From IMG/VR virus record IMGVR_UViG_3300042508_000526: DNA of 64,000 nucleotides; one strand, 5' to 3'. The stretch comes from a virus. Lineage: Duplodnaviria; Caudoviricetes. The notes beneath the pieces are model-generated. The model made no database searches. It was not told the DNA's origin and saw only the letters and a program-made list of their open reading frames with translations. Shown here piece by piece: positions 61,442 to 63,918 of the stretch; the stretch's first letter is position 1, and the number at the start of each line of letters is the position of its first letter. Both the position numbers and the translations under genes were made by a program.

Positions 61442-61517
61442 TGGCTGCCTGAGTAGGACTCGAACCTACGACCCGGCGGTTAACAGCCGCCTGCTCTACC
61501 AACTGAGCTATCAGGCA
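61442..61517 (-). tRNA. trnN: tRNA-Asn (GTT)
   Basis: 76 nt; acceptor stem TGCCTGA/TCAGGCA; D-arm TAGCTCAGTTGGTAGAGC; anticodon arm GGCGG-CTGTTAA-CCGCC; GGTTCGAGTCC T-loop; encoded GCCA end. Confidence 0.97.
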
Positions 61518-61523
61518 ATTTTG

Positions 61524-61670
61524 TCACGGGTGCGTAGTCATCGTTGGCATGTCAGTATGCCCGTGACTGTGCGCTACTGCGGCTAGCGCAGACACGAACA
61601 GAAGCAGACAAAACATAGCGGACGCGCCCCACGCCGCTACGCTCAATTGTTTACGAATTGTCATTGTCAT
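61524..61670 (-). CDS. Small hydrophobic peptide (48 aa)
   Basis: AAGGAG RBS; one TM or signal-like helix; overlaps the holin-like gene end. Confidence 0.45.
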   Translation of the reverse strand: MTMTIRKQLSVAAWGASAMFCLLLFVSALAAVAHSHGHTDMPTMTTHP

Positions 61671-62007
61671 GCTCGTGATCTCCTTGACGATCGCGCTCGT
61701 GCACAATAGTGACTTTGATACCAGCTCCGGCTAGCAAAGATATCACAAGATCGGTCATTGTGGAGCCGCCCATACCGGCGAGCACACAGATTCCGATCAA
61801 ACCGTAAACGTTCTCTGCTTTTCGGTAGTTTTGGTACCAAATCAGCGCAATGGCCAAACCCAGAAAACCGGCGTTGAGCATGGCGCTGACAACAGCTAGT
61901 TTAGATAACTTCTTGGCAAACCGCAAAAAGGTCGCCAAGCCTGCAAAAGCAGCAGCGCCAAATGCGCTAAAAAGCACCGACAACGAATGTAGTGTTTCGT
62001 CGCCCAT
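61651..62007 (-). CDS. Three-TM holin-like protein (118 aa; start moved to ATG 62007)
   Basis: Three hydrophobic helices and a charged C-terminal tail (HERDRQGDHEHDNDNS). Confidence 0.5.
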   Translation of the reverse strand: MGDETLHSLSVLFSAFGAAAFAGLATFLRFAKKLSKLAVVSAMLNAGFLGLAIALIWYQNYRKAENVYGLIGICVLAGMGGSTMTDLVISLLAGAGIKVTIVHERDRQGDHEHDNDNS

Positions 62008-62049: not shown

Positions 62050-62276
62050 TGTACGCCAAAAGCCCCTGCGATCCCCTGTCCGCAGGTCCGTGTCCCGACC
62101 GAAGTCAGGACTCCGCAGCAACTTTCAAGGACAAAATTTATCCTGTGTGGCATTTGCTGCTCCTCCGCCCGCGTGCCCGACAGAATCTGACCGCGGAACC
62201 TGTAACCCCGTTGGCATCCATGCCGCCGAAGAAACGCCTAACCAGCCGGCCACCACGACTAACTTTTGACGCACAT
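62050..62276 (-). ncRNA. Candidate structured RNA (GGA-rich sRNA or long 5' leader)
   Basis: 349-bp gap with no credible ORF. Helices GGC-ATGGAT-GCC, GCAGCAA/TTGCTGC enclosing AGGATAA/TTGTCCT, GTCCTGAC-TTCG-GTCGGGAC and CCTGCG/CGCAGG followed by GGCTTTT. The UUCG loop and G-U pair favour the minus strand. Confidence 0.55.
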
Positions 62277-62282
62277 ACAGTA

Positions 62283-62291
62283 ATTTTAACA
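62283..62291 (-). promoter_or_regulatory. Extended -10 promoter (TGnTAAAAT)
   Basis: TGTTAAAAT just downstream of a terminator and upstream of the structured region. Confidence 0.5.
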
Positions 62292-62333
62292 CTCGCGGTA
62301 TGCAGTAACTACAGACCGCTAAACAGATTTTCA

Positions 62334-62375
62334 AAGAACAAAAATACCGGCGCAATTTAGATATAACGCGCCGGT
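62334..62375 (-). terminator. Rho-independent terminator overlapping the GDPD-like gene end
   Basis: ACCGGCGC...GCGCCGGT followed by ATTTTTGTTCTTT. Confidence 0.6.
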
Positions 62376-62815
62376 TCGTTACTGCATAGCCCGGCTGGCT
62401 CGTAATTATCCAGCCAGCTGGGCTCGGCCAGCTCGGGAAACGCCGCGATTGAGCGCGGCGAAAGTTCGCGCGGCGGCATCGTCCAGATAAATTGCGCCGT
62501 GGTCAGCGACAGCGGAATTTCGCCGCCCATAAACGCGTGCGCGCCAATTGTGCACAGCGCGTCGAGCGTTTCGGCGTTGTAACAGCGCGACCAGACCCGC
62601 TGCTGGGAAAAGAAACTGGGCGGCGCGACACTGAAACCATTTTCGTTGGGCAGCACAAATCCGCCATTTAAAAGCTGCACATCGACGCAAACATGCCAGC
62701 CAGCTTTCAAACTCGCCTGCACATATTTCAGCGTATTTTCCAGCTCTGGTTGCCGGCCGTCGATGTTGCCCAAGTGCGAAATGATAATCCCGTCGAAGCG
62801 CGCCCTGCGTCCCAT
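62357..62815 (-). CDS. Short GDPD-like (glycerophosphodiester phosphodiesterase fold) protein (152 aa)
   Basis: IISHLGN...PELENT...LKAGWHVCVDV parallels the family's SHRGN...EN...G.D.EIDV. Confidence 0.55.
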   Translation of the reverse strand: MGRRARFDGIIISHLGNIDGRQPELENTLKYVQASLKAGWHVCVDVQLLNGGFVLPNENGFSVAPPSFFSQQRVWSRCYNAETLDALCTIGAHAFMGGEIPLSLTTAQFIWTMPPRELSPRSIAAFPELAEPSWLDNYEPAGLCSNEPARYI

Positions 62816-62901: not shown

Positions 62902-63918
62902 TCACAAAATCTTGGCCGCAATGAGACAACCGCGCGCGACCGCATGCAGCGGATCATTGGCGTGACGTACTTCTTTGACCGGCAGCGGAAAACCATGCTC
63001 GTCAAGTTTCTTTTGAAACATTTCAACGAAGCCTTTAGCGCGTGTCGTGCCGCCGGCCAATGTTATCAGAATCGGCTCTTTGAACTTGGGCAGAGCTTTG
63101 TGGCCCTGTAACGCGTGCGCAAGCATCTTCACGGTGTAATCGATCAGACGCTCGTAGTACACGCTAACAGCAGACAAAATTGCGCTGTCACTCTGCTCGC
63201 CAATCACAAACGTGCCGTGCTCTTTCTCTGCCTGCACAACTGAATCCGGCTCATTTGTGGCAACGGCCGTCATGCGGTCAATCCAGTCGCCGGACTTCGT
63301 TGTCGAAAACAGCACGGTGGGTTCGCCGTTGAGCATGACACAGCAATTCACCATGCCCGCGCCCCACGACAAGCCAATGCCGGTGTAATCATCGTTTTCC
63401 AGCTCCGAGTAGCACAGCGCTTCGGCTTCGTTAATCGCCCGGGCCGTGTAACCCTGCTCCGCCAGCACCGTGCGCACAACGTCTTCGTGATACGCGACGT
63501 CAAAATCATCGTCTTCCTGATCGACGGGCTGGGCCGGCACGCAAAAGATCAGCTTTTCGTGCGGCTCGCTGGCGGTGCCGACAACTTCCTTGAGGATAAA
63601 CGCCAGCACGCGCTTGGCTTCTTTTTCCTTGGGGCTAACCACGCCGCGATACATGGGGCGCTTGGCCGAGTCATTGCGCTCAACGGCCTTTTCGATGGCG
63701 TCTTGGCCGAGAATAATAAACGTGCCGTCGGCGTCGCGCACAAATACCTTACCCTGTAGACCTTTTTCGATCATCTTGGTGGCCACGGGGGTCGTCGGCT
63801 TGATGACGTAAAACGCATCGCGGAAATCTTTGTATTGAACGCTGGCCGCGACGGCAGAGTCCAGCGCGTCTTGCGCCAGCACGATAAACGATGTTCCGAC
63901 GTCTAAACCCTTAGCCAT
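62902..63918 (-). CDS. Actin-fold ATPase, volactin/MreB-like (338 aa)
   Basis: Phosphate-1 GLDVGTS; connect-1 INEAEAL; phosphate-2 GLSWGAGMVN; adenosine LAGGTTRAKGF; connect-2 NDPLHAVARG. Confidence 0.9.
   Translation of the reverse strand: MAKGLDVGTSFIVLAQDALDSAVAASVQYKDFRDAFYVIKPTTPVATKMIEKGLQGKVFVRDADGTFIILGQDAIEKAVERNDSAKRPMYRGVVSPKEKEAKRVLAFILKEVVGTASEPHEKLIFCVPAQPVDQEDDDFDVAYHEDVVRTVLAEQGYTARAINEAEALCYSELENDDYTGIGLSWGAGMVNCCVMLNGEPTVLFSTTKSGDWIDRMTAVATNEPDSVVQAEKEHGTFVIGEQSDSAILSAVSVYYERLIDYTVKMLAHALQGHKALPKFKEPILITLAGGTTRAKGFVEMFQKKLDEHGFPLPVKEVRHANDPLHAVARGCLIAAKIL

Follow-up and report, generated by a model that had tools for sequence, protein, structure and literature searches.

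The locus raised the question of what kind of element occupies positions 62050-62291 of a phage genome, between two genes. The window, which is the whole stretch of DNA that was analysed (64,000 nt), covers bases 48270-112269 of a virus record that is 203,206 bp long and has direct terminal repeats. The first-pass annotation, made from the letters alone, had described the region as an independently transcribed, GGA-rich structured RNA, and had proposed either a CsrB/RsmZ-like sponge or a 5' untranslated region of a holin-like gene. We investigated whether the RNA is real, how it is placed and which of these functions it may have.

Genomic setting

All genes surrounding the RNA were carried by the minus strand. 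The features of the locus are given below.

62902-63918, minus: volactin-family actin (PF25216, 215.6 bits)
62357-62815, minus: P0002, a 152-aa open reading frame with no function assigned, the upstream neighbour of the RNA
62337-62375, minus: intrinsic-terminator-like hairpin closing P0002, with an 8-bp GC-rich stem and then a T-run
62283-62291, minus: extended -10 element TGTTAAAAT, with the start expected near the first base of helix P1
62008-62052, minus: linker from P1 to the P0001 start codon, G-poor, non-conserved, with a weak Shine-Dalgarno (SD) sequence
61651-62007, minus: P0001, a 118-aa holin-like protein, three membrane helices predicted, tail acidic
61524-61670, minus: open reading frame for a 48-aa membrane peptide, overlapping the final 20 nt of P0001 in another frame
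61442-61517, minus: tRNA-Asn, found by ARAGORN, about 530 nt downstream of the RNA
after tRNA-Asn in gene order, minus: 435-aa protein with a 2H phosphoesterase domain

The terminator, the -10 element, GGC-ATGGAT-GCC, C-UUCG-G and the CCTGCG/CGCAGG hairpin with its T-run were all found on the minus strand where the first-pass annotation had placed them. Direct sequence reading gave terminator arms at 62375-62368 and 62353-62346, followed by A-TTTTTGTT, and the stop codon of P0002 (62357-62359) sat inside the terminator loop. This hairpin was missed by the consensus terminator scan because its loop is 14 nt. The upstream neighbour of the RNA depended on the clade, being the 152-aa open reading frame in one clade and the actin gene directly in the other.

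Two side observations were made in this region. A box, CTCTTTGACAAT (TTCTTTGAAAATC in the window, 62326-62338, minus), was conserved at the same place in the clade-1 homologues, directly after the upstream terminator, and was absent from the loci where the actin gene was the direct upstream neighbour. It was not the -35 element because it lay too far (about 40-50 nt) from the -10 element, and it could be a protein-binding site or a promoter for another polymerase. The 48-aa open reading frame encoded one membrane helix and a His/Thr/Pro-rich tail and stopped 6 nt short of tRNA-Asn. Its product could be a partner of the holin-like P0001.

A conserved fold with compensatory changes

Related loci were collected to determine whether the fold is conserved. 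A search with the P0001 protein gave 54 related viral loci, and the 400 nt upstream of each were aligned. These upstream regions aligned over about 225 nt with compensatory changes, and the flanks did not align. RNAalifold predicted 58 pairs from 31 distinct copies, of which 40 showed compensatory (double) changes, and covariance model R1 was built from this set. The parts of the RNA are given below.

62053-62272, minus: structured RNA of about 220 nt, made up of both P1 strands and everything between them (220.6 bits with R1)
62262-62272, minus: P1 5' strand, forming an 11-pair closing helix with 62053-62063
62243-62261, minus: P2 hairpin with the 7-nt loop UGGUGGC, 100% paired, 3 pairs covarying
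62249-62253 (GUGGC) with 62147-62151 (GCCAC), minus: pseudoknot formed by P2 loop bases
62201-62236, minus: P3, a long hairpin with a stem variable in sequence and length, covarying pairs and an invariant loop
62169-62196, minus: P4 hairpin with the conserved internal loops GUCAG and G-G-C
62154-62160 with 62115-62121, minus: P5, 6 of 7 pairs covarying
62128-62144, minus: P6 hairpin, 5 of 6 pairs covarying
62094-62109, minus: P7 hairpin with a cUUCGg loop, 5 of 5 pairs covarying
62065-62086, minus: P8 hairpin with a CCUGCG/CGCAGG stem, 4 of 7 stem pairs covarying, then GGCUUUUGG

The architecture consisted of eight helices (P1-P8) and one pseudoknot. P1 showed changes on both sides at 10 of its 11 pairs, with 97.1% of cells paired, and P4 had nine pairs, five of them invariant and three covarying. 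P5 (62115-62160) enclosed the pseudoknot strand, P6 and a conserved U-G-A-A-A-G. The partner of the P2 loop (GYGGY) in the pseudoknot was the internal loop of P5 (RYCRC), a pairing that the first-pass annotation had not noticed. All five pseudoknot pairs were formed in 100% of cells in 50 distinct sequences, and two of them covaried (CG 26, UA 16 and UG 8 at one; UA 35, CG 5 and UG 10 at the other). The sequence GGC-AUGGAU-GCC was located at 62224-62213, and the P3 tip in the window was GC-AUGGAU-GC (62214-62223). About 68 positions were invariant, largely in junctions and internal loops.

The pairing was strongly supported in 51 distinct homologues, where 63 pairs in 10 helices, with the pseudoknot included, paired in 97.6% of cells. 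The control values were 84.4% when partners were shuffled and 34-45% when partners were slid by 1-3 columns, and the observed pairing was reached in 0 of 500 shuffles. Of the 63 pairs, 43 changed on both sides. A naive all-against-all covariation scan was discarded because the two-clade phylogeny swamped it, and it was replaced by mutual information with APC correction, in which the top-ranked pairs were nearly all predicted pairs. The RNA was assigned to the minus strand because the invariant G-U pairs (15:33, 209:218 and 14:226) work only there.

The covariance model found 79 copies in 80 stretches that had been fetched independently with a 22-nt DNA pattern, and 33 further copies in metagenome contigs. 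Full-length copies scored 164-243 bits. The 203-kb genome of the window held a single copy, and the RNA was seen only in related freshwater (lake) phage contigs of about 200 kb.

We also considered that the region is not an RNA element at all, being a chance fold, a short coding gene or a diverged known RNA. The single sequence folded at -98.6 kcal/mol (z = -3.54), and 0 of 200 shuffles folded as well. A chance GC-rich fold was rejected by the compensatory changes at 43 of 63 pairs. Open reading frames of 47-103 aa did overlap the RNA region on both strands. However, coding was ruled out because 1-2-nt indels were scattered through the alignment and the internal AUG was lost, the AUG of the 47-aa frame being replaced by AUA in many homologues. 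Together with the database results below, this made a non-RNA explanation extremely improbable.

These results meant that region 62053-62272 is a real structured RNA of an undescribed family. The structured RNA of the first-pass annotation was thus upheld, but not its extent of 62050-62291, since the core is 62053-62272 and is closed by P1.

Database searches

Rfam 15 was searched, and there was no match on 62050-62291, neither at the gathering threshold nor at E <= 10 with permissive filters. The first-pass annotation had likewise been unable to match the RNA to an Rfam family. Weak chance matches (nqrA-Marinomonas and U7) fell upstream of the RNA. When the 1.6-kb stretch was compared with 50,697 phage records by blastn, the tRNA was the sole match. 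The 22-nt pattern occurred at 8 places in 185,579 representative prokaryote genomes, none of them a true copy, and gave no host clue; the best of the 8 scored 22 bits, compared to 164-243 bits for true copies. ARAGORN gave tRNA-Asn only.

Several known RNAs were weighed and rejected. The P4 hairpin with GGAGGAGCAGC resembled the SRP helix-8 motif faintly by eye. However, no SRP family matched at E <= 10, and the P4 loop was variable and not GNRA. For SRP, 6S, tmRNA, RNase P and Y RNA, no model matched even at E = 10. Group I intron, M-box and cobalamin riboswitch were also weighed by eye, and there was no model match and the helix topology differed. The short resemblances that prompted these by-eye candidates were GAAAGU, GGUCAG...GGAGCAGC and GUUAGG. 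Our literature search found no paper describing the RNA family or a partner RNA of a phage CsrA.

Promoter, RNA ends and transcripts

The sequence upstream of P1 was compared among homologues to locate the start of the RNA. Of 53 distinct homologues, 30 carried TGnTAnnnT at 4-7 nt ahead of the first P1 pair and one more carried it 10 nt ahead (31 in all). Most other homologues had TATAAT or TAAAAT at the -10 place. The sequence surrounding the element was not conserved. Because the -10 element is spaced just before P1, the transcript is expected to start at the foot of P1. The combined -35 and -10 pattern TTGACW-N13-16-TGnTAnAMT was absent from the whole genome. TGnTAWAMT alone had 5 occurrences on one strand and 7 on the other, compared to about 11 per strand expected by a rough hand estimate, and it is not a repeated promoter class.

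A subclade of about eight loci (L093, L064, L058, L072, L099, L062, L125 and L114) had no -10-like element. In these loci a short GC-rich hairpin, for example GCGCG-NGAAAN-CGYGC, abutted the RNA, which suggests that transcript start or processing differs there.

The 3' side was less defined. The family alignment contained no conserved terminator between the RNA and P0001, and the U-run after P8 was replaced by CUUAC in one whole clade. In many members the sequence just after P1 was rich in U (on average 4.5 of 12 nt), and part of the transcripts could end there.

One freshwater metatranscriptome contained a 158-nt contig that agrees with 62078-62235, within the RNA, at every base; a single contig of this kind reports neither RNA ends nor strand. 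Apart from tRNA, the 1.6-kb stretch was represented there by this contig alone, at a low depth of 3.1, and no piece of the flanking genes was found, a gap that is no evidence of absence. This RNA run shared a small part of the sequence words of the stretch, and its other matches were tRNA-like pieces from other organisms. We regarded the contig as slight evidence that the RNA persists longer than its neighbours.

Linkage of the RNA to P0001

The linkage between the RNA and P0001 was examined from both directions. Starting from the RNA, a P0001 homologue was present at 73 of 73 loci with enough downstream DNA. Starting from the protein, the RNA preceded the gene at 80 of 80 loci, its end lying 18-60 nt from the gene. 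The distance from the RNA 3' end to the gene start was 18-62 nt in all loci. When distant P0001 homologues without the RNA were sought by alignment, every match belonged to the same family and was at least 64% identical. From this unbroken linkage, and because no terminator is conserved, we read the RNA as at least the 5' leader of a membrane-protein operon. This modified the first-pass claim of independent transcription: the RNA does have its own conserved -10 element, but it is not an orphan sRNA gene, since its position upstream of P0001 is fixed.

P0001 matched no Pfam, PHROG or NCBIfam family. Its mean column identity was 75% and its helices were Gly-rich. The nearest P0001 clusters in an Atlas feature search carried Phage_holin_3 families (0.90-0.91), and a relation to Phage_holin_3 was taken as a lead only. 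Over the whole family the protein showed 58-100% identity, with invariant SAMLN-GF-GL and AGMGG-T motifs in the helices. This conservation is unusually high for a holin-like protein, and P0001 might serve as a subunit of a channel or transporter and not as a holin.

The linker was not conserved in sequence or length among 49 distinct linkers of 20-62 nt; it was often U-rich at the start, and its SD was usually weak. A GGA lay within 20 nt of the P0001 start in only 6 of the 49. These linkers held no conserved SD-sequestering helix and no alternative pairing. A competition between the SD of the holin gene and the P2 loop for the pseudoknot strand was tried and rejected because it worked in one clade only. 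The linkers were strikingly G-poor and rich in A, C and U, many without a recognisable SD, which suggests either a structure-free standby region for ribosomes or a rut-like stretch where Rho loads. The first-pass alternative of a 5' untranslated region of the holin gene was therefore sustained in part: the linkage fitted it better than a sponge, but a conserved SD helix or a GGA at the SD was not found.

GGA motifs and a phage CsrA

Nine GGA trinucleotides had been counted in the first reading, and we found the same nine, starting on the minus strand at 62219, 62166, 62163, 62143, 62114, 62095, 62089, 62081 and 62074. Dinucleotide shuffles gave 4.9 +/- 1.6 GGA, and nine were reached in 0.8% of 2000. 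However, only 62219 in the P3 loop and 62074 in the P8 loop were invariant, in 48 of 48 distinct homologues. The other seven were kept in 4-65% of homologues, and family members had 3-10 GGAs each. Since just two GGAs are conserved, the RNA is not a CsrB/RsmZ-like array. With no Rfam match and no conserved terminator as well, the sponge proposed at first was not supported.

The two invariant sites were compared with CANGGANG, the consensus of CsrA/RsmE sites. The P3 tip was C-A-(G/U)-G-G-A-(U/A/C)-G in 48 of 48 distinct sequences, and every variant fitted CANGGANG. Because the P3 stem varies in sequence and length, its loop was suggested to contact a trans factor and not an internal receptor. 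The P8 loop, (A)GGGGAU at 62072-62079, was an approximate CsrA site in which the A stands three bases, not two, before GGA. It lay about 50-95 nt upstream of the SD and start, with no overlap.

The genome was searched for CsrA and for further sites. The features found are given below.

G000:C1:38471-38611 region (locus L148:1450-1644), minus: phage CsrA, 64 aa, with the Lys-rich tail KKKKRKNG
G000:C1 83872, 83245, 78180, 139989, 33385, 173990, 9185 and others, minus: A(C/U)GGAG hairpins
35603, 34976 and 29911 of the window, minus: window positions of the A(C/U)GGAG hairpins at C1 83872, 83245 and 78180

The CsrA homologue was located outside the window and scored 56.4 bits with PF02599, compared to a cut-off of 27 bits. 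It aligned over its full length with RsmE (2JPP) and CsrA structures, with the Arg44 position kept, and CsrA was present in 10 of 10 relatives that were at least 90% complete. The gene has a GTG start 12 nt after the preceding open reading frame, and the homologues in relatives lay in open frames of 67-109 aa.

In the genome we counted 18 hairpins with an A(C/U)GGAG loop. The coding strand carried 17, and in about 10 a start codon came directly after the hairpin; permuted loop motifs yielded 2-7. This supported the premise of the first-pass annotation that CsrA-type sites lie on other phage genes. In these hairpins the loop is the Shine-Dalgarno sequence and the start codon follows 2-5 nt past the stem; the one at C1:33385 has a 15-pair stem. 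ANGGAN hairpins on the ribosome-binding sites of about ten phage genes form a candidate regulon. The co-occurrence of CsrA and the RNA was weak evidence because both may be core genes of one phage family.

These sites bear on the main idea of the first-pass annotation, that the RNA acts in trans as a stable CsrA decoy, which would hold one dimer per RNA and free the ANGGAN-hairpin sites of virion genes. Either termination in the U-rich sequence that follows P1 or cleavage within the long P1 helix would release the decoy from the primary transcript, and it would then accumulate. The shape of the P3 tip is that of the ribosome-binding-site hairpins of about ten phage genes, the phage encodes CsrA, and the RNA has its own promoter element and a start at the foot of an 11-pair helix, as stable RNAs do. 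The metatranscriptome contig lay wholly inside the RNA, which has a chance of about 5% for a 158-nt piece under uniform cover. Leader RNAs that titrate CsrA are also known, the Salmonella fim leader reportedly being one. However, there are two conserved sites compared to 5-22 in RsmZ, RsmY and CsrB, and the other seven GGAs are not conserved. The RNA never occurs apart from P0001, and a purely trans-acting gene needs no such linkage. There is also no conserved terminator, and the P8 U-run is CUUAC in a whole clade. We considered the decoy quite unlikely on balance.

Function of the RNA

Based on the above results, the RNA is probably a new viral gene-control RNA and not a CsrB-like sponge. Our main reading, tentative and drawn from sequence comparison, is that it is a CsrA-binding structured leader of the membrane-protein operon, to which we give a probability of roughly 45%. 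CsrA was taken as the most likely binding partner because the RNA has two loops with an invariant GGA and the phage itself encodes the protein, and one CsrA dimer per RNA fits the two-site layout. CsrA binding, the direction of control and co-transcription with P0001 are the parts that we infer.

In the proposed mechanism, the extended -10 promoter of the RNA would transcribe it from the foot of the 11-pair closing helix. The eight helices and the loop-to-internal-loop pseudoknot would form a compact core from which the P3 and P8 tips project. One dimer of phage or host CsrA may dock through these two loops. Docking would set the fate of the downstream message, either translation from the weak unstructured start or stability and processing. 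The bound CsrA would also leave the pool that acts on ANGGAN hairpins of other phage genes, giving some titration.

In leaders under CsrA control, a GGA site usually covers the SD or the start codon. Here a GGA within 20 nt of the start was found in only 6 of 49 linkers. In addition, two hairpins would suffice for CsrA, which leaves the conservation of about 68 further positions, eight helices and the pseudoknot unexplained, so the core may serve another ligand or protein.

This point leads to a riboswitch-like or protein-binding sensor that is unrelated to CsrA and controls the membrane-protein gene. The ligand of its core would be a metabolite, an ion or a different protein of phage or host, and the GGA loops would be tertiary-contact or recognition elements. 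The roughly 68 invariant positions are mostly in junctions and internal loops and occur together with a pseudoknot, as in large aptamers, and the RNA is always upstream of one very conserved small membrane-protein gene with no GGA conserved at the SD. However, a sensor should have a conserved expression platform, and none was seen: the linker length varies and there is no SD-sequestering alternative helix. P1, with 11 or more pairs, should be stable with or without ligand, and this is not usual in a helix that switches. Variation in the length of P3 points to a trans factor for its invariant loop, which matches the CsrA consensus exactly in a phage that encodes CsrA. Such a sensor or RNP appeared somewhat unlikely, and it was kept at this level because the conserved eight-helix core is unexplained and no GGA lies on the SD.

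The CsrA-binding leader could be extended to a virus-borne Csr circuit, which we put forward as speculation and hold to be unlikely. The phage CsrA would have a rigid partner RNA that clamps one dimer between two loops. When the RNA-holin operon fires, the ribosome-binding sites that CsrA occupies on capsid, sheath and fibre genes would be freed and the lysis clock would start. If true, a global regulator of bacterial origin and a new RNA fold would together make up a translational late switch.

The phage family offers a testable set, with CsrA, about ten to fifteen CsrA-type hairpins on viral ribosome-binding sites and a strongly conserved 220-nt RNA, with two invariant CsrA-type loops, in front of a holin-like gene. 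Binding of CsrA to the RNA would make this the first viral Csr-type circuit and a structurally new CsrA-binding class, with a rigid two-site fold in place of a hairpin string. Should CsrA fail to bind, the RNA would remain a new ornate class, built on a pseudoknotted core, and a riboswitch or RNP candidate from jumbo-size phages that are uncultured.

Comparison with known systems

CsrA/RsmE-regulated leaders include those of glgC, hcnA and pgaA, and in moaA CsrA acts on a structured, riboswitch-like RNA. Like these, the phage RNA is a 5' leader fixed to one gene. Its P3 hairpin loop fits CANGGANG, a second GGA loop is present so that a dimer could bridge the two, and a CsrA gene is in the same genome. 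In contrast to these leaders, the phage RNA has no conserved GGA over the SD or start. Its sites are mounted on a large, eight-helix pseudoknotted fold, and the leader and CsrA are both viral.

The phage RNA resembles CsrB, CsrC, RsmX, RsmY and RsmZ in having GGA in hairpin loops and its own promoter, and it could withdraw CsrA. However, it has no Rfam match and only two conserved GGA sites, where those RNAs have 5-22. Sponges of the CsrB/RsmZ type are a string of loosely conserved hairpins, whereas the body of the phage RNA is strongly conserved. Furthermore, it lacks a conserved terminator and is never an orphan gene. In comparison with riboswitches, a structured aptamer-like body upstream of one gene class was found, but an expression platform was not.

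GOLLD, ROOL, raiA and HEARO are ornate large RNAs that came from comparative genomics (Weinberg et al. 2010, 2017; PMC2864571, PMC5737381). The phage RNA shares with them a complex fold supported by covariation, and it is phage-borne with a tRNA gene nearby. It differs in being smaller, at about 220 nt, in having no Rfam 15 match and in its strict attachment to one protein gene.

For phage CsrA itself, the accessible part of one survey reported csrA in 30 of 2517 phage genomes (PMC7366521). The accessible part of another report described gp47 of the Bcep22-like phage JC1 as a CsrA homologue and possible virion protein (PMC9144972). No csrA role, partner RNA or viral target set was described in those parts of the two texts. 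As far as they go, phage csrA is on record as an allele only, whereas a candidate partner RNA and target hairpins are present here in the same genome.
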